DNA of 64,000 nt from a virus (lineage: Duplodnaviria > Caudoviricetes), in IMG/VR virus record IMGVR_UViG_3300008262_000001; one strand, written 5' to 3'. Made by a program: the position numbers and the translations under genes. The notes under the pieces are model-generated. The model was not told where the DNA came from. It did no database searches and was given only the letters and a program-made list of their open reading frames with translations. Below are positions 8,403-54,855 of this stretch, piece after piece. The first letter of the stretch is position 1, and each line of letters begins with the position of its first letter.

Positions 8403-9587
8403 TTATCCAAAATAGAATCTTTTTCTAACTTGTAAGAGTAGATCTTTCACGAAATCGGGCGCAACACTTTCTGGTAAAGACGATTCTTTAAATAATCTAT
8501 CAATTTCAATAATGTCTTTTTCTGCAAAGCTTATCAAACTCTCAAGATCAATTTCTCCTCTTCTTATCGCTAATAAATCATGTGCATTTTTTCTTCTAAC
8601 TAAAACTCCTTTTCCCTCTGCAATCTCTTTAGCCATTTCAAGAAGTCTGCGACAGTGCATCATGTTTTTACCATCAATTTTTTGGCCATGAGATTCAACA
8701 TCTACCCATCTTTGCAAATTCCTTTTTTCAAGCCACACTTGATATTCATTGAAATCCTTACAGTGCATAATGTAACCGTCCTTGTTGTAAATGATGTTAC
8801 AAATAGGGGTTTGTCCATTTGGTATCGAGGAAAGACGTAATTGATTTGATTCTGCAACACTTGCCCCATGTCCAGTTTTTACAAGACCTTTGTAGCTGAA
8901 TCCCAATGGTAGACCAGATTCTTTTCTGGTTTCTAAATATATTTCACGAGTTTTAGTCGGAACTTGTTCTGAAAAACATAAATGAGCGTCGGTGTCATAG
9001 TAAAGAGCATATATGTCTCTTGCATTTGGTACGTTTACTGCACCAATGAATTTCTCGTCATATCTTCCATTGTTCCATTGCTTCCATGGTATAGACTTTT
9101 CATCTTCAATTACATAACAAAAATCTAAAACGTCCTTGCGTGAGACTTTGTCTTTGTCCCAGTTTTGTTTCTTGTCCTGTCCCTTAGCCTTCTTGATTTG
9201 CTGAATTGCATAACCAGCAAAAGAATTAGAACATTTCTTAGTCACAAATTTGTCCTTATAACGGAGTATTTCATCCATTGCTGGATGTTTGTATAGAATA
9301 CAGTCTTCGGGCGTGTTTAGAAGCTCTAAAATAGTTGGATTGTTAGTAGATGCAAGTTCTAAAAATCTCTTAATCTCATAAAAGACAGTGTCATTCTTGT
9401 CATCGTTAATTTGGTCTTTATACCCATACCCAAGTATATCATCAAGGCTTTGAATATAAATTCCAGCATAGTCAACATCAGAAGTTGGAAGAGCTGTTCC
9501 GTAAACTTGCGACCCACGTTTCACAACCAGTAATAGCTCAGCTCCTGAAATTTTAGAATTGACTAAGTTGGTAAACTCTTTCATCAT
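8403..9587 (-). CDS. DNA polymerase beta-superfamily nucleotidyltransferase (RlaP/Nuc-transf-like)
   Basis: RGSQVYGTALPTSDVDYAGIY (GS...DxD) motif, NPTILELL, C-terminal KNMMHCRRLL helical domain. Confidence 0.85.
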   Translation of the reverse strand: MMKEFTNLVNSKISGAELLLVVKRGSQVYGTALPTSDVDYAGIYIQSLDDILGYGYKDQINDDKNDTVFYEIKRFLELASTNNPTILELLNTPEDCILYKHPAMDEILRYKDKFVTKKCSNSFAGYAIQQIKKAKGQDKKQNWDKDKVSRKDVLDFCYVIEDEKSIPWKQWNNGRYDEKFIGAVNVPNARDIYALYYDTDAHLCFSEQVPTKTREIYLETRKESGLPLGFSYKGLVKTGHGASVAESNQLRLSSIPNGQTPICNIIYNKDGYIMHCKDFNEYQVWLEKRNLQRWVDVESHGQKIDGKNMMHCRRLLEMAKEIAEGKGVLVRRKNAHDLLAIRRGEIDLESLISFAEKDIIEIDRLFKESSLPESVAPDFVKDLLLQVRKRFYFG

Positions 9588-9612
9588 GATGAGAAATTTT
9601 TAATTTTCTTCT

Positions 9613-9620
9613 CAAAAGTA
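9613..9620 (-). promoter_or_regulatory. Bacteroidota-type -7 promoter element TAnnTTTG (TACTTTTG)
   Basis: Exact match 25 nt upstream of ATG 9587. Confidence 0.5.
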
Positions 9621-9646
9621 GAAAAAGTGTTCCATACAAAAAAATG

Positions 9647-10111
9647 CTAATAGTGTAAATCTAAAAATAGAATATCTGGATCGTCCTTATAAAATACTGG
9701 ACTCCAAACTGGATGGTATTGATTTTTTAAGGTGTCATCTAATTCTACAATGTGGTCTAGAGGATTTTCAACTTTGGGAAATTTACCAGGTTCACCATTC
9801 TTCCTTCTTGTTACTTCTTCCTTCATTCGGATATTCATGGTCTTTGTCCAATGGTAAGAATCTCCCTCCTTCAAATAAACTCCCCATCCTTCAGATTTTG
9901 ATCCTGGAGGGTAAATACCATCCGGGCAGCTTTCACATCCTGACATTCCAGAAATATCTTGTCCATCATAATAACTATCTTCTATTCTCTCAACTATTAC
10001 AGGAGCTTCGTCTGGAATATTATTTTCCTCAATAAATTTTTTCAAATCACCTACAGTCATAAATCCATTACTGGCGTACTTGAAAAGGTCTTTTTTATCT
10101 AACTTTCTCAT
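9647..10111 (-). CDS. hypothetical protein
   Basis: 154 aa ORF, 4-nt overlap with upstream gene. Confidence 0.7.
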   Translation of the reverse strand: MRKLDKKDLFKYASNGFMTVGDLKKFIEENNIPDEAPVIVERIEDSYYDGQDISGMSGCESCPDGIYPPGSKSEGWGVYLKEGDSYHWTKTMNIRMKEEVTRRKNGEPGKFPKVENPLDHIVELDDTLKNQYHPVWSPVFYKDDPDILFLDLHY

Positions 10112-10908
10112 TTTCTAAACCAATTTATCATTCCATCGTAAAAAGCAGAACCATGATTTATAGATCCATAATCCCTGTGTTCAGCAAAGTGTTCCTTATC
10201 TAATTCTTCCATGCTTTCTTCATCGTCAACAAAGACTCTTTTTTTGGGATAAACATTCGTGCGTCTTTTCTTCAACTCATCCCACCAGTCATTTTGTGTC
10301 ATATATTCGAAATCTGGCTGTATCCTAATTTCCCCAGTCTCATATCCAAGTAATATTTTTGCAGGAAGTCCATAGTACCAAATTTTTCTTCCCTCCTCTT
10401 CCTCTGGATTTAAAAAGTTATATGGATGATCCAGCATTTCATCAATCTTAACTTGGGCATGGGCTAAGGCACCTTTCATCTCTCTATAAAAGAATTTATA
10501 AACTTCTTTACCATTGGCACTAATAGTGCATTTTCCACCACTTCTTATATCCCATTCGTCCCACTTGTACTTAGTAGAGTTAAATTGTGAATAATGTATA
10601 CCCCAGCAAACTCGATGAACACCATTGTCAATGTAAGGGATAAGCTCACGAATAATCGGGGCTTCAACTTCTCCAAACTGATTTGTAGTTTCTTCATAAT
10701 CAGACCAATCTAACCACCATGTTTCAGGTTGGCCGTTGTATTTTCCTAAAAGATGACTATAACCTTCTATAGAGTAAACCTGGTAGTTTTTATCACCAAT
10801 CCTGATTTCGAAAATTTTTCTAACATTAGATCTTCCAAATTCATCTTTACCGAATTTCTCACAAGCTTCATGATAAGTTAATCCCTTTTTCCCCATTTTA
10901 GTATTCAT
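10108..10908 (-). CDS. hypothetical phage protein
   Basis: 266 aa ORF in co-directional cluster. Confidence 0.75.
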   Translation of the reverse strand: MNTKMGKKGLTYHEACEKFGKDEFGRSNVRKIFEIRIGDKNYQVYSIEGYSHLLGKYNGQPETWWLDWSDYEETTNQFGEVEAPIIRELIPYIDNGVHRVCWGIHYSQFNSTKYKWDEWDIRSGGKCTISANGKEVYKFFYREMKGALAHAQVKIDEMLDHPYNFLNPEEEEGRKIWYYGLPAKILLGYETGEIRIQPDFEYMTQNDWWDELKKRRTNVYPKKRVFVDDEESMEELDKEHFAEHRDYGSINHGSAFYDGMINWFRK

Positions 10909-10918
10909 GTTTTATTTT

Positions 10919-11140
10919 TCAAAATTTATAAATCCATAAGTGGTTATGGATGTTCAGAAAATCAAGTTCAATTTCAAATTTTGGAGAATGAGAATCCTCA
11001 TATCTGTCCCAGTTAATTTTAAAATTGAATAGACTGATTCCATCAGAAAAATCTCTAACTTTCGAAAAAATCTGGATCTCCCAATACAATTTTCTTTTTG
11101 TTGACAAGACCCCACTTCTACAAAATCCTAAAAAACTCAT
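10919..11140 (-). CDS. hypothetical protein
   Basis: 73 aa; overlaps upstream gene by 4 nt. Confidence 0.6.
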   Translation of the reverse strand: MSFLGFCRSGVLSTKRKLYWEIQIFSKVRDFSDGISLFNFKINWDRYEDSHSPKFEIELDFLNIHNHLWIYKF

Positions 11141-11400
11141 CTAATTTTTTTTAGCCAATTTACGAAATGGTCTGCTATTTCTTTGTCTTCCCATTCGTAT
11201 TGGGTAAAACCATTTCTGCAATATTCTCCAAAGTTTATCATGTCAATCATGGAAAAACCGGGTGTACTTTTAAGTAAGACCTCAACACGATTTGGATCTA
11301 CGCCTTCTCCTTCTTGCTCAATAGATTTCCATTCTTTCTCTATTGAGTCGGAATCTAATTGACTAAATCTATAAGACAATGCTTCTATAATTTCACTCAT
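11137..11400 (-). CDS. hypothetical protein
   Basis: 87 aa ORF in cluster. Confidence 0.65.
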   Translation of the reverse strand: MSEIIEALSYRFSQLDSDSIEKEWKSIEQEGEGVDPNRVEVLLKSTPGFSMIDMINFGEYCRNGFTQYEWEDKEIADHFVNWLKKIR

Positions 11401-11408
11401 ATTTTTGA

Positions 11409-11930
11409 TTATTTAGAACCTATTAAAATCTTTCCATCAACGCTAACCTGTGTCTGTATAACCAATCCATCACTATAAGATTCTTGGCTCACACAGACTT
11501 CGATTGCTTCAGAAAAAACTAAATTTTGAATCGCTGCAATGTCTAAATCATTACCATCAAAATCTTTACCTAGTTCATAAGGAAAAGCAAATATCGGATC
11601 TGCTTCTTCTATTTGGTTACCCATGAAATCTAGAGGGGACGAAATAATGTACTGTCCATTTATAAGAAATAGTACTTGACATTCGGGATCGAAGAAATCT
11701 TTACAAGTTATAAATATCGAAGAAAAATTGTTGATTAAATCCCCTTCTGCTTTCAAAGATTGTTGGTTTTGAGTATCCGATATTTCGTAATAACCGTTAT
11801 TCAATCCATGAATTTGATAAACAGATTTGTCAAGATTTGATACTACGAAATTTCCAATATTTTTATCCAAGTTTCTTAATAGGTCTAATCTGACTAGTTT
11901 TACTTTTCCCTCTAATTTGTCCATTTTCAA
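11409..11930 (-). CDS. hypothetical protein
   Basis: 173 aa ORF in cluster. Confidence 0.65.
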   Translation of the reverse strand: MKMDKLEGKVKLVRLDLLRNLDKNIGNFVVSNLDKSVYQIHGLNNGYYEISDTQNQQSLKAEGDLINNFSSIFITCKDFFDPECQVLFLINGQYIISSPLDFMGNQIEEADPIFAFPYELGKDFDGNDLDIAAIQNLVFSEAIEVCVSQESYSDGLVIQTQVSVDGKILIGSK

Positions 11931-12005
11931 AGATTTTAAAATTTAAATTTATACGAAGCAAAACTGAAAAGATTCAAGTTTTTAGAAAAAAAGGATAAAT
12001 AAACC

Positions 12006-12338
12006 ATGTCTAAGGGGTTTGTTTATTTAATCGTAGAAGCAAACGAGGATGGTCGCGAAAGGTTTAAAATAGGAATTACTAAAAATCACCCTAGGCAAAG
12101 ATTAAACAAGCTAAAAACGGGGAACTCAAATGAGCTTGAGCTTCTTAAATTTTATGAAAGTGAAAACTACAAGAGGATTGAAAAATGGTTTCACATGAAA
12201 TATGCCTCTAAGAAAACCATAGCTAAAAACGAATTCTTCGACCTTTCAGATGTTGAAGTTATAAATTTCATCAACGATTGTGTGGAGATAGATTCTACTA
12301 TTTCGATATTAAAGAAGGAAAATCCCTACTTTAATTAA
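12006..12338 (+). CDS. GIY-YIG/T5orf172 (MUG113-like) nuclease domain protein
   Basis: GFVYLI...FKIGIT...RLNKLKTGN...IEKWFH...NEFF motifs; GATAAATA at 11994-12001. Confidence 0.85.
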   Translation: MSKGFVYLIVEANEDGRERFKIGITKNHPRQRLNKLKTGNSNELELLKFYESENYKRIEKWFHMKYASKKTIAKNEFFDLSDVEVINFINDCVEIDSTISILKKENPYFN

Positions 12339-12923
12339 TTACTTCCTAGGTTTTCTTTCTTTCTTAGCTCTTTGATAGAGTTTTTTATCGTGCATCTTTG
12401 TTGTTTTGCCACCAGTTATAAAAGAATTTACTCTTGCCATTGCCCATTGCTGAGGTGTCGTGCCCGGCACATGGCCGGTCTTCCATGCGACATACCCTTT
12501 TTTCCAAACCTGTGTTAATATACCTTGTGGGAATCCAGTTTTTTCTGATTTGTTTTTTAGTGCCTTCCTTACTGGACTTGATGGAGAGCTGACACCTTCG
12601 AAAAGGAATCCTTCAATTTCTAAGATTGAATTTTCATCCATTTGGTTAAGTTCTTCTATGAATTCCTGTTCTAAATCTTCCAGAACTTGCATGAACTCGA
12701 AAGGATCAGTTATAATATTTTCACCAAACATTTGTTTGTATTTCTTTGTGTATTGACTTTGCTTTGTTTCTACCTTTTCTCCCTTTCCCGCTTTTCTAGA
12801 TTTATAATCTGCATCCCAAGGACCATAAGCAGAAGAATCATCATCACGCTTTTTAGCGTGTTTTTTTATTTCCCTTCGCATTACGTTAGGATTTTTTGTT
12901 AGATATTTCTTAGGAAGTTTCAC
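12339..12923 (-). CDS. conserved viral protein (DUF5824-like)
   Basis: LKNKSEKTG...VWKKGYVAWKTGHVPGTTPQQWAMARVNSF resembles a domain shared by large phages and algal viruses; GTG start; GATATATA at 12939-12946. Confidence 0.7.
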   Translation of the reverse strand: MKLPKKYLTKNPNVMRREIKKHAKKRDDDSSAYGPWDADYKSRKAGKGEKVETKQSQYTKKYKQMFGENIITDPFEFMQVLEDLEQEFIEELNQMDENSILEIEGFLFEGVSSPSSPVRKALKNKSEKTGFPQGILTQVWKKGYVAWKTGHVPGTTPQQWAMARVNSFITGGKTTKMHDKKLYQRAKKERKPRK

Positions 12924-52438: not shown

Positions 52439-52758
52439 ATGAGATTAGAGACTATTTGGGCTACCTTATATCCAGTGAAAGCTCCAAGTGATGCAGACCC
52501 AGGTAAAATAATAAATCTTCCCAGTTTTGTTTTATATTTTTCCCTATTAACTATATAAGAAATGAGCATGTAATAGAGTAAAAAATTTAAAAAAACCAAA
52601 GAATCAACTTCTTTCGACATGAAAACAACAATTGAATTACCCATAAATCCCCAAGAAAAATTTATAAAAGTTTCTTTAATCAATTCTAAAGGGGTAGTGA
52701 TGGCTCCAAAAATATCAATGGATTGAGTTAGGGGATTATCTTTCTTTGCACTTTTCAT
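52435..52758 (-). CDS. membrane protein
   Basis: 3 hydrophobic segments; coupled to both neighbours. Confidence 0.7.
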   Translation of the reverse strand: MKSAKKDNPLTQSIDIFGAITTPLELIKETFINFSWGFMGNSIVVFMSKEVDSLVFLNFLLYYMLISYIVNREKYKTKLGRFIILPGSASLGAFTGYKVAQIVSNLI

Positions 52759-53459
52759 TTCCAGTAAGTTTTGTGTCCGGAGAAAAATTCTTTATTATTC
52801 CTGTGAAGATAGGATTTACACATTAATTTAAGCATGTACCATATCCCCTTATTCTCAAATCTTCTAGCGGGAGTAAAAATATTTTTTCTAAGAATCCCAA
52901 ATTTACCATTTGAAATTTTTTTCGATAACAAATAGTCTTCTGCTACCTTAGCATCTTCATCAAAACCTCCCAAATTCTGAAAAGTTTGAGTCCTAAACAT
53001 CATAAACCCTCCAAGACAAAAAGGGGTAAAAGGTTTTATTAATTTTTGAATTAAATCAAAACATCTAAACACGTAATTATAATTTCCATTGGAAGTTCTA
53101 ACCTTTGTAGTTAAAAGATCGAGATTATTGTTTTTAATTGAATCGATACACTCAGAAAGCAAATTCATATCCAATATGAAAATATCGGCATCCATGAACA
53201 AAACATAGGGTGTTGTAACAAGTCTTGCACCGGCATTTCTAGCCTTTCCTGGTAATCCCCCATTTATTACACAAAGGTTAAATCTGTAGGAGTTACAAGA
53301 TTTTAGAATTTCTTTAGTACCATCATCAGAATCATCGGCTACAATTACGGTTGTGCCATCGATATTTTTTTGAGAATTTAATAAATTCAAAGCAGTAACA
53401 ATAATCCCAGATTCATTCTTGCAGGGGATCACTATAGTTAGAAGGTCTTTTAAATCCAT
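52755..53459 (-). CDS. GT2 glycosyltransferase
   Basis: TIVIPCKNE, VADDSDDGT, ARNAGA, FMDAD, GFDE..AEDY. Confidence 0.9.
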   Translation of the reverse strand: MDLKDLLTIVIPCKNESGIIVTALNLLNSQKNIDGTTVIVADDSDDGTKEILKSCNSYRFNLCVINGGLPGKARNAGARLVTTPYVLFMDADIFILDMNLLSECIDSIKNNNLDLLTTKVRTSNGNYNYVFRCFDLIQKLIKPFTPFCLGGFMMFRTQTFQNLGGFDEDAKVAEDYLLSKKISNGKFGILRKNIFTPARRFENKGIWYMLKLMCKSYLHRNNKEFFSGHKTYWK

Positions 53460-53620
53460 AAAAATCCGGAGGAAATGGGATTTCCGTTTTTTAGTTTTTC
53501 TTGATTTATATATTCAAGAAAAAATGATCCTTATGCTAAGGATTGGAATAATAACAATTTCTTTATTCTGATATTACCACAGAATAAAATCCTCGAACTT
53601 TTAGGGGTTTAATATTGTAG

Positions 53621-53762
53621 TGATCGAGGAAGGATTCGAACCTTCACAGCTGTCATTATAGTGACCGCATTTTTTCAATGCTTTTTTTACCACAAGGCTA
53701 TAACCTCGTTACGTCTACCAGGAGATAATTATCTAGAATCATCCCACTTCCGCCACTCGATC
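53621..53762 (-). ncRNA. tRNA-like RNA with expanded arms (element 1, 142 nt)
   Basis: Acceptor GATCGAG/CTCGATC; TGGCGGAA...GGTAGACG D-arm frame with inserted hairpin; stem ACGAGG/CCTTGT; two variable hairpins; T-arm GAAGG-TTCGAAT-CCTTC. Confidence 0.75.
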
Positions 53763-53765
53763 AAA

Positions 53766-54065
53766 TTGGGTGGGTTAATGAGTGGTTTCCCCCACCTCTT
53801 TTTACTCTGTATCAATCTACTAGCAAAGTAGTATCAACCTGCGCCACTCTGTGTTTTTCCCACCTTGAGATTACTGGTGAGTAGATATATCGGTTTTCTA
53901 TTTCTTAAAAACCTGTTGGTCTTACCCGTTGAAAACATCCAACACTACTGGGAGGAGGTGTGTCGCTCTCCTTTATTCCCATGATGTCCCACTCGCGCCG
54001 TAGACATTCTGCGGAATCATTCTTAAAGTCTTGATTCGAAGACTCTGAGTATCTCTTACTCATTG
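53766..54065 (-). ncRNA. structured non-coding RNA core, possibly GOLLD-like 3' domain
   Basis: No credible ORF; nested stems GGTGGG/CCCACC, GAGTGG/CCACTC, TGTTGG/CCAACA, TGAGTA/TACTCA, AGTCTT/AAGACT. Confidence 0.5.
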
Positions 54066-54239
54066 TAGTCAGGACAGGATTCGAACCTGTATGAACACTT
54101 TGAAATTTACCTACGCACAGTGAGGTAGTGTTCTTCATCATTCGCATTGCCTAATCATTGAGCGCTTTTACATTTCGGTTGCCGTGCGTGTCAATAAGCG
54201 TCTACCAAGGCCCAAAGCGCCTTATTCCGCCACCTGACT
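54066..54239 (-). ncRNA. tRNA-like RNA with expanded arms (element 2, 174 nt)
   Basis: Acceptor AGTCAGG/CCTGACT; D-loop hairpin AAGGC/GCCTT; TATTGA/TCAATG stem with 29-nt loop; variable GAACACT/AGTGTTC; T-arm ACAGG-TTCGAAT-CCTGT. Confidence 0.75.
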
Positions 54240-54540
54240 ATATTCAAAGGAAAACAGAAGATGGGGGTGTGGACATCTGTTTTTACGATTGGCATTTCTT
54301 GCTAGTGCTAGCCCCTAATTCCCAACCAACCAGTATTTCAAAGAACTCATAATTTATACTGGCAAAAAAGTAAAGAATTCCAAAGTGTAGATTAAAAATT
54401 GAAAGAAAGCTAATTTTTGACTTTAACGCAATTGGGAACGATCTTACCGTTTTTGTCCTTTGTCCCAATTTGTTTGTATCCCTTCCAGCAGGGATTTTTT
54501 TTCTCAGCTATAAATTCCTTGTAATTTAGTATCATATTGA

Positions 54541-54855
54541 TTAAATATTTCTAACCGGGCGAATACCCAGTTTGTTAGATCTAGTATTTTTTGAAGAGTA
54601 TGATCCTGTACTAAAATTTATAACCGCATTGTAACCATCTTGAGTTGATCGATCACTCCAATATAATCCTGTTGGATTAAAACCAAGAATTCCAAGTTTG
54701 TGAAGTTCGTACAAATAGCCAAGCTCCTTAAGAGTTGGAATTCTCCAATCACCTCCCCTAAGAGCTGAACATAAAGCCTTACCACTTAAAAATTCCCTAT
54801 CTGGGAGATCCCTATAGAAAATTTCCAGATCTCCAACTATTAGATTTTTTTTCAT
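54541..54855 (-). CDS. DUF1566/Lcl C-terminal-like protein
   Basis: DWRIPTLKELGYL...YWS...GIRPVRNI. Confidence 0.75.
   Translation of the reverse strand: MKKNLIVGDLEIFYRDLPDREFLSGKALCSALRGGDWRIPTLKELGYLYELHKLGILGFNPTGLYWSDRSTQDGYNAVINFSTGSYSSKNTRSNKLGIRPVRNI

Follow-up and report, generated by a model that had tools for sequence, protein, structure and literature searches.

What kind of gene keeps the acceptor stem, D arm and T arm of a tRNA-Leu while lacking a loop in which an anticodon could be displayed? The question is raised by two short RNA genes, here called elements A and B, on the minus strand of a 64,000-nucleotide (nt) stretch of DNA from a virus of the class Caudoviricetes (IMG/VR record IMGVR_UViG_3300008262_000001; ‘the window’). 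An earlier note, made from the letters alone, had described both as tRNA-Leu-shaped RNAs with hairpins inserted into the D, anticodon and variable arms. We find that A and B are members of a large, essentially phage-borne RNA family. We also think it somewhat probable that they are genes for stable, non-decoding RNAs that derive from a phage tRNA-Leu, are matured as tRNAs are, are possibly leucylated and carry variable folded modules.

The architecture given in the earlier note is borne out by the sequence, including the position and the sizes of the two RNAs (174 nt for A and 142 nt for B). Each has a perfect acceptor stem of 7 base pairs (bp), TG at positions 8-9, the frame GCGGAA...GGTAGACG and a perfect T arm with the loop TTCGAAT; in B, the acceptor stem is GATCGAG/CTCGATC, paired at 7/7 positions and followed by a discriminator A. 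The D loop of each element contains a different hairpin, AAGGC/GCCTT in A and GGGATGATT/AATTATCTC in B, and RNAfold predicts both of these hairpins and also recovers both T arms. As the note had stated, the middles consist of several hairpins, a 7-nt anticodon loop is missing and CCA is not encoded. In the middle of A, there are a long hairpin with branches, a linker and a helix (GAACAC/GTGTTC) that is similar to a variable arm and stops 2 nt short of the T stem; the anticodon position of A is occupied by a branched arm of 43 nt without a 7-nt loop. The anticodon-like hairpin of B has a non-canonical loop, whose size of 4, 6 or 8 nt varies with the way in which the stem is drawn. One correction to the structural argument of the note is needed: folding energy alone is unremarkable for the two elements, with z-scores relative to shuffled sequences of -0.16 for A and -2.7 for B.

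Standard classification tools do not place these genes. ARAGORN reported nothing in the window in its standard, relaxed or transfer-messenger RNA (tmRNA) modes. Rfam returned no family at threshold for A or B: the tRNA family RF00005 remained below its gathering score, and even at E <= 10 the elements obtained just a match to tRNA-Sec, at 15 bits. A canonical anticodon arm, with a 5-bp stem, a 7-nt loop containing U33 and a leucine anticodon, is absent from both A and B. The leucine-type acceptor stem, D arm, T arm, A73 and A15 with U48 are present in both.

To define the family, viral contigs were scanned with the pattern TGGCGGAA, 12-40 bases, TGGTAGACG, which gave at least 119 loci (loci from this and the later scans are denoted by L numbers). 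Base counts are given for 64 non-identical members. The 3' ends were located by the T arm alone and acceptor pairing was not required; among frames delimited in this way, the acceptor is paired at 7/7 positions in 63 of 77 and at 6/7 positions in 6 more. In an alignment of 30 sequences, 7/7 acceptor pairs and 4/5 T-stem pairs have changed on both sides, and 99.8% of the cells are paired, compared to 35-41% when the partners are slid against each other. The same covariation is seen in 107 model-aligned hits, and both alignments are 99% paired versus 33-43% after sliding. The statement of the earlier note that stem sequences differ while pairing is kept therefore holds between A and B as well as family-wide, the homologues being rich in compensatory changes.

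A covariance model, R2, was built from the 107 outside hits, none of which came from the window. Applied to the 64 kb, it gave 76.2 bits for A and 67.5 bits for B, with the next match at 13 bits. Given this gap (68 versus 13 bits), the window holds exactly two members, and the membership of A and B is far beyond chance. The features of both elements and of their surroundings are collected in Table 1.

Table 1. Coordinates of elements A and B, of their parts and of the neighbouring features in the window (bit scores and E-values from covariance model R2)
Feature	Coordinates	Strand	Details
Element A, tRNA-Leu-like RNA gene, AGTCAGG-type scaffold	54239..54066	minus	174 nt; 76.2 bits, E = 1.6e-19
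A, acceptor 5' strand AGTCAGG	54233..54239	minus	pairs with CCTGACT at 54067-54073, 7/7
A, discriminator A (A73)	54066	minus	
A, D-loop insert, 18 nt, between A15 and G18	54207..54224	minus	hairpin AAGGC / GCCTT, 5 bp
A, middle module, 108 nt, in place of anticodon and variable arms	54091..54198	minus	
A, T arm ACAGG-TTCGAAT-CCTGT, U48 just before	54074..54090	minus	
Element B, tRNA-Leu-like RNA gene, GATCGAG-type scaffold	53762..53621	minus	142 nt; 67.5 bits, E = 4.9e-17
B, D-loop insert, 28 nt	53720..53747	minus	9-bp hairpin GGGATGATT / AATTATCTC
B, middle module, 66 nt	53646..53711	minus	anticodon-arm-like hairpin, A-rich linker, two small hairpins
B, T arm GAAGG-TTCGAAT-CCTTC	53629..53645	minus	
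Lcl_C-like small gene	54855..54541	minus	borders the gap on one side
Family-2 glycosyltransferase	53459..52755	minus	borders the gap on the other side
Terminator-like hairpin ATCCTTA / TAAGGAT and U run	53518..53543	minus	~80 nt 3' of B; read from sequence

The distribution of the scaffold points to phages. Among 185,579 prokaryotic species genomes (one per species), the exact AGTCAGG scaffold was found on 5 contigs only, all of them short contigs of metagenome-assembled genomes (MAGs) labelled Flavobacterium (2), Chitinophagaceae, Peregrinibacteria and Neisseriaceae. Because 4/5 carry tRNA genes called by ARAGORN, we judged these contigs to be phage-like, and we take them for phage DNA that ended up in bins; hosts among the Bacteroidota would fit. 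In blastn comparisons of the locus and of family members with GenBank phages, the matches, where there were any, were generic ones to the D and T arms of tRNAs, and no clear member was among them. The literature searched contained no description of the family or of a tRNA D-loop hairpin, which is not proof of absence.

Members that have no D-loop insert pass RF00005 at 37-41 bits. Four further oversized tRNA-like genes (L124:751-846, L037:2535-2626, L037:1687-1839 and L125:275-395) score 34-50 bits with the Rfam tRNA model; two have non-leucine scaffolds and two a GCGAAA variant of the leucine D arm, one of the latter with a D-loop hairpin. The search pattern therefore caught only part of the phenomenon. 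Phage genes of this kind are under-counted in tRNA annotation; they are retrieved by a covariance model of the R2 type.

What sets this finding apart is the D-loop hairpin, an optional module. About two-thirds of the collected members have an insert between A15 and G18, nearly all of these inserts fold as hairpins, and insert-free members are present in several contigs. The commonest type has an 8-bp stem capped by GG-UGU-CC. Across 22 distinct sequences of this hairpin, in whose selection pairing was not used, 6 of the 7 tested pairs have changed on both sides, and 99.4% of the positions are paired versus 42-56% after sliding. Neither the 5-bp hairpin of A nor the 9-bp hairpin of B belongs to this covarying class; they represent other types. 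The tRNA elbow thus tolerates expansion at a site for which a 2020 review of non-canonical tRNAs describes none (PMC7609411).

Inserts of this kind raise the possibility that A and B are working tRNA-Leu genes with introns or tolerated expansions. ARAGORN in intron mode does call both elements, as a His(GUG) tRNA with an 86-nt intron and a Thr(AGU) tRNA with a 64-nt intron, each from nucleotide 34. A gene at L025:3843-3945 (plus strand) that escapes ARAGORN looks like a genuine tRNA-Leu(UAA): its anticodon arm (loop CTTAAAA) and variable arm are normal, and the 20 nt inserted into its D loop form no hairpin. The His and Thr solutions, however, contradict the leucine scaffold of A and B and are not credible, and no single excision yields a 5-bp stem and a 7-nt loop with U33. 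At 18-28 nt, the D-loop inserts are far below the size of group I introns, and Rfam finds no intron match, so that neither a group I nor a bulge-helix-bulge intron accounts for the two genes. No mechanism by which bacteria or phages would remove a hairpin from a D loop is known to us. In addition, the tRNA arrays in which members occur also contain a normal tRNA-Leu, which indicates that the elements do not substitute for it. Known introns whose splicing would give normal tRNAs, which the earlier note had named as speaking against its own proposal, were not found, and we regard decoding by A and B as very unlikely.

In contrast to the scaffold, the middle is hypervariable, ranging from 23 to 144 nt in confirmed frames and comprising many unrelated types. 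In many members, the anticodon arm is cut down to a linker of 9-14 nt, followed by a long helix that resembles an overgrown variable arm and stops 2 nt short of the T stem. The module of A recurs in L206, and its 3' half is also found in L049, L207 and L008; a pattern scan for the middle of A matched 4 viral contigs, of which 2 had already been collected and 2, L206 and L207, were new, with L206 as the sole close relative. Among A-type modules, the outer helix is kept with different sequences, as in L008 and L049 (GAACAC/GTGTTC versus GAGTTCCA/TGGAATTC), and an A-rich strand, UWAA...AAA, is conserved. Both comparisons were made by eye, because RNAalifold misaligned the modules of five A-type members, and they are weaker than the scaffold statistics. 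A nested second T-arm-like hairpin (for example GGGTTCGAGTCCC) was observed in the middles of L078:2813-2958, L037:2777-3009 and L118:4317-4484, as if one tRNA-like unit had been inserted in another.

Comparison with L206 reveals how sharply the unit is bounded. The L206 gene is 93% identical to A over 144 nt plus the 5' scaffold and has a plain D loop, GGAATGGTAGA, without a D hairpin. Homology between the window and L206 is confined to 54241..54064, that is, A ± 2 nt; the flanks of L206 are unrelated and lie in a tRNA array. Parts are also exchanged between members: L208 and L210 combine the acceptor of B with different middles and the common D hairpin, and L079 and L208 share the same middle on a different acceptor and with a different hairpin. 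Relatives of the glycosyltransferase next to the elements, 52-72% identical, occur in 80 phages that keep the downstream genes, and none of these 80 phages has an element at the syntenic place, synteny ending at the start of the glycosyltransferase gene. The boundaries in L206, the swapped parts and the missing syntenic copies together indicate that the RNA gene is a discrete unit that has been gained, lost and recombined. Synteny of the glycosyltransferase with a metallophosphoesterase downstream of it is kept in at least 80 large contigs of phages (L126-L205), which reach 294 kb. Upstream of the glycosyltransferase, the gene content is peculiar to this phage, the elements and the type IX secretion cargo genes included, which marks the edge of a variable region.

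Such behaviour would also be expected of a selfish or decaying tRNA-derived cassette that spreads by recombination at its conserved ends without benefit to the phage. The variable position in related phages, the sharp boundaries, the unrelated contexts and the shuffled modules all fit this explanation. Strong selection on pairing in each of the three helices of the scaffold, and in the D hairpin as well, together with conservation of the bases that make tertiary contacts, does not: these observations indicate selection on the folded RNA, not just on DNA ends. Neither direct repeats, terminal repeats nor target-site duplications were found around A or B, and no transposase, integrase or other recombinase is linked to the elements. 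A purely selfish origin is thus quite improbable in our estimate.

The L206 boundaries also bear on whether the two elements are domains of a single ornate RNA of ~0.9 kb, similar to GOLLD or ROOL, or docking modules of a larger RNA, as the earlier note had suggested. Elements A and B do lie together in ~1.1 kb of hairpin-rich DNA without a convincing gene (53460-54540), and GOLLD and ROOL occur near tRNAs in phages. However, no match to GOLLD, ROOL or another such Rfam family was obtained even at E <= 10, and neither the linker between the elements nor the stretch upstream of them is more stably folded than shuffled sequences (z = -1.7 and -0.13, respectively). The flanks are unconserved, homology to L206 ending within 2 nt of the ends of A, and members occur singly inside tRNA arrays. 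This renders a common larger RNA extremely unlikely and leaves no support for docking modules.

What, then, has been kept? The acceptor stem, the leucine-type D arm, U48 and the T arm together make up the elbow half of the tRNA L shape. U48 is present in 63/64 non-identical members and A73 in 54/64; 64/64 have a T loop that reads TTCGAAT or varies from it only slightly, and the acceptor of element A is shared by 37/64. U48 and A73 lie outside every search pattern; U8, A14, A15, G18G19 and A20a lie within the motifs used for collecting the sequences. The leucyl-tRNA synthetase (LeuRS) of Escherichia coli requires A73, the A15-U48 pair, G18G19, A20a and contacts of the D loop with the T loop, and both the anticodon and the long variable arm are dispensable, so that a tRNA-Leu without both arms is still charged (PMC9976931). 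Because the invariant part of the family coincides with this leucylation set and the variable part with the arms that LeuRS ignores, the family RNAs probably bind the host LeuRS, and they may be leucylated. Of the roles proposed in the earlier note, the link to a synthetase is therefore plausible.

The same conservation is compatible with a decoy or sponge, in which the tRNA-Leu top half would titrate a host factor that recognizes the elbow or the acceptor end, and the modules would tune specificity or stability. Candidate targets are LeuRS, a tRNA-targeting defence toxin, a toxin that modifies CCA ends or a tRNA-sensing immune protein. Phage tRNAs have been reported to counter tRNA-cleaving defences, and the restriction of the family to phages, the presence of several copies per genome and the retention of the LeuRS determinant set are all in keeping with such a role. 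On the other hand, the best-known tRNA nucleases would find no anticodon loop to cut, which makes the anticodon-nuclease decoy of the earlier note unlikely; a plain sponge leaves the diverse, structured middles unexplained; and the elements are not linked to any gene for defence or counter-defence. Titration is a live variant of our preferred reading, a stable RNA matured as a tRNA, although as a separate explanation it is unlikely.

The sequences flanking the elements suggest how these RNAs might be made. The leader of A ends in AU before AGUCAGG, and its 3' end reads CCUGACU-A followed by CAA; the leader of B ends in UU before GAUCGAG, and its 3' end reads CUCGAUC-A followed by CUA, so that neither gene encodes CCA. 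Both conform to the family pattern, in which U is found at -1 in 46/64 and A at -2 in 45/64, C74 is present in 61/64, position 75 is A or U (C in only 2) and position 76 is mostly A. The 126 tRNAs that ARAGORN calls in the same loci have the same leader and the same C74-W75-A76 trailer. Across loci L001-L125, ordinary tRNAs almost never encode CCA and show a C74, A/U75, A76 trailer and an A-N-A-U leader. In these phage-host systems, the shared leader and trailer may serve as a signature of processing.

Genomic setting points in the same direction. Ordinary tRNA genes called by ARAGORN lie beside an element in 19/47 loci, and an element is located within a tRNA array or at its edge in L039, L064, L068, L078 and L102; wherever strands were compared (for example in L039 and L064), elements and tRNAs are co-stranded. 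Some loci contain many members within ~3 kb, with 7 in L087 (~9200-12200) and 6 in L112 (~10700-12650); these differ in length and hence in their middles. One phage contig with a family member also encodes a tmRNA (L077:134-549, plus strand; RF00023, 54 bits). Maturation through the tRNA pathway is likely on the basis of these flanks and arrays.

The tRNA-like flanks make recognition by RNase P and RNase Z plausible, which retains one part of a further proposal of the earlier note, that the elements are processing signals releasing the RNA between them. If the elements were mere tRNA punctuation, cuts by these enzymes would separate neighbouring transcripts and the excised RNA would be functionless. 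An ATG located 2 nt past A, and ATGs ~15 nt past several other members, would suit this explanation. However, an acceptor/T minihelix would suffice as a signal, so the conservation of the leucine D arm, U48 and the D hairpin is left unexplained, as is a middle that is 93% identical in the unrelated context of L206. Many members lie between tRNAs, where there is no mRNA to free. Furthermore, the 300-nt linker between A and B is unconserved in the L206 locus and folds no better than shuffles, which argues against the release of an RNA from between the elements. We consider a role restricted to punctuation quite doubtful. The ATG next to A opens a 52-codon frame (53905-54063, minus strand) within an 80-residue open reading frame (ORF; 53905..54147); its product would be hydrophilic, and it is probably not a gene.

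On the reading that we prefer, A and B would be transcribed together with, or in the manner of, tRNAs, cut by host RNase P and 3' maturation enzymes and then supplied with CCA. The tRNA body would provide stability, the kept set of bases would probably allow binding of host LeuRS, and leucylation would be possible. On their common scaffold, the variable modules would serve as the working parts, possibly as protein-binding or decoy modules. This retains the central idea of the earlier note, that of non-decoding tRNA mimics under structural selection; the roles it proposed fare unevenly, as set out above.

Several points weigh against parts of this account. A73 is absent from 10/64 members, so leucylation is not universal. 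The hairpin between A15 and G18 alters the D-loop geometry that LeuRS reads and might block charging, and the leucine-type core could simply be inherited from an ancestor rather than kept for LeuRS. Clustering of ORFs around 48 loci, combined with Pfam searches of the recurrent ORFs, revealed no conserved partner protein. Finally, the middle module of B had no homologue in the scans that were run.

A more specific version of the preferred account is that the RNAs are leucylatable, non-decoding adaptors: LeuRS would charge the common top half, and the modules and the D hairpin would steer the RNA to different partners. We regard this as rather unlikely. Were it true, the family would represent aminoacyl-tRNA mimicry outside translation, with one module per target, and possible uses would include the delivery of leucine, the blinding of amino-acid or tRNA sensing and the neutralization of tRNA-directed immunity. 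Phage tRNA genes are usually read as helpers in codon usage or as spares against tRNA-cutting defences. The family described here is a large tRNA-derived one that is unable to decode, yet keeps synthetase and maturation features while its middle diversifies.

The surroundings of the elements are those of a phage, and the window is AT-rich (GC 32-41%). Phage genes include those for a Dda-like helicase, a tail-spike or virion protein and a lysis-type hydrolase, and type IX secretion cargo genes of the Bacteroidota style are also encoded; the probable host belongs to the Bacteroidota. A scan for sigma-70 promoters was uninformative for such a host. The terminator-like hairpin downstream of B is a possible end of the transcription unit: it is also visible in a weak alignment to sroB (Rfam, E <= 10), and the terminator scan was silent on it because it contains just 2 G-C pairs. 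The A-B linker contains scaffold-like fragments at 53837-53849 (GAGTGGCGCAGG, minus strand) and at 53995-54045, the latter a hairpin with TTCGAAT in its loop region. These fragments may be the remnants of a decayed third copy, although the covariance models give them no score. Complementarity between the middles and D hairpins of A and B and the rest of the window did not exceed 13 nt, which is the chance level. At a distance of 45 kb, the window encodes a 394-residue RlaP-family nucleotidyltransferase (8403-9587, minus strand; Pfam PF10127, E = 2.4e-17; phrog_388), a DNA polymerase beta-like protein of the RNA repair pathway that could have a bearing on the ends of tRNAs or tRNA-like RNAs.

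To place the family among known RNAs, we compared A and B to the systems they most resemble. With class II tRNA-Leu (RF00005), they share the 7-bp acceptor stem, U8, the D arm GCGGAA..GGUAGACGC, A15/U48, UUCGAAU and A73, as well as the tRNA-like leader and trailer and a place in phage tRNA arrays. Unlike tRNA-Leu, A and B have neither a 7-nt loop nor a leucine anticodon, and they contain an 18-28-nt D-loop hairpin and a middle of 66-108 nt.

The nearest published RNAs are the stable RNAs species 1 and 2 of phage T4 (rnaC and rnaD), which are likewise oversized, at 139 and 119 nt, and have been annotated where the T4 tRNA cluster ends. To our knowledge, their function is still unknown decades after their discovery. 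The T arm of rnaC, CCGGG-TTCGAAT-CCCGG, has a loop like that of the family, and covariance model R1 matches the 3' 92 nt of rnaC, if weakly (22.5 bits, E ~1e-4) and below the genuine T4 tRNA-Leu and tRNA-Ser. In contrast to A and B, neither a leucine-type D arm nor a D-loop hairpin is seen in the T4 sequence examined, and the T4 RNAs are an analogue rather than a demonstrated member.

Three other systems embody a related principle and fail as identifications of A and B. In tmRNA, an acceptor/T domain is charged without an anticodon, and a structured, often pseudoknotted RNA replaces the anticodon arm. It differs in being ~360 nt long, with a reduced D arm, a tag reading frame and, in G3-U70, the identity of an alanine tRNA; in A and B, pair 3-70 is U-A, the leucine D arm is complete, and neither the tmRNA mode of ARAGORN nor Rfam detects a tmRNA in them. 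YrlA (Y RNA-like) RNAs, which are non-coding and also occur in phages, have tRNA-like D and T arms and an elbow that is recognized by tRNA enzymes, and their ends lie in the Ro-binding stem, a permuted topology. In A and B, the acceptor stem is formed by the ends of the RNA and is not permuted, and Rfam gives no match to YrlA. The third system is artificial. In engineered tRNA scaffolds, a foreign folded RNA is placed at the site of the anticodon arm, and the tRNA body provides processing and stability. This is the same architecture as that of the family, realized as a laboratory design that usually starts from class I tRNAs; the phage family, in contrast, is natural, leucine-specific and equipped with an extra hairpin in the D loop. 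Should the phage RNAs prove to be both made and charged, the engineered tRNA scaffold would have a natural counterpart, and phages a new use of the host tRNA machinery.

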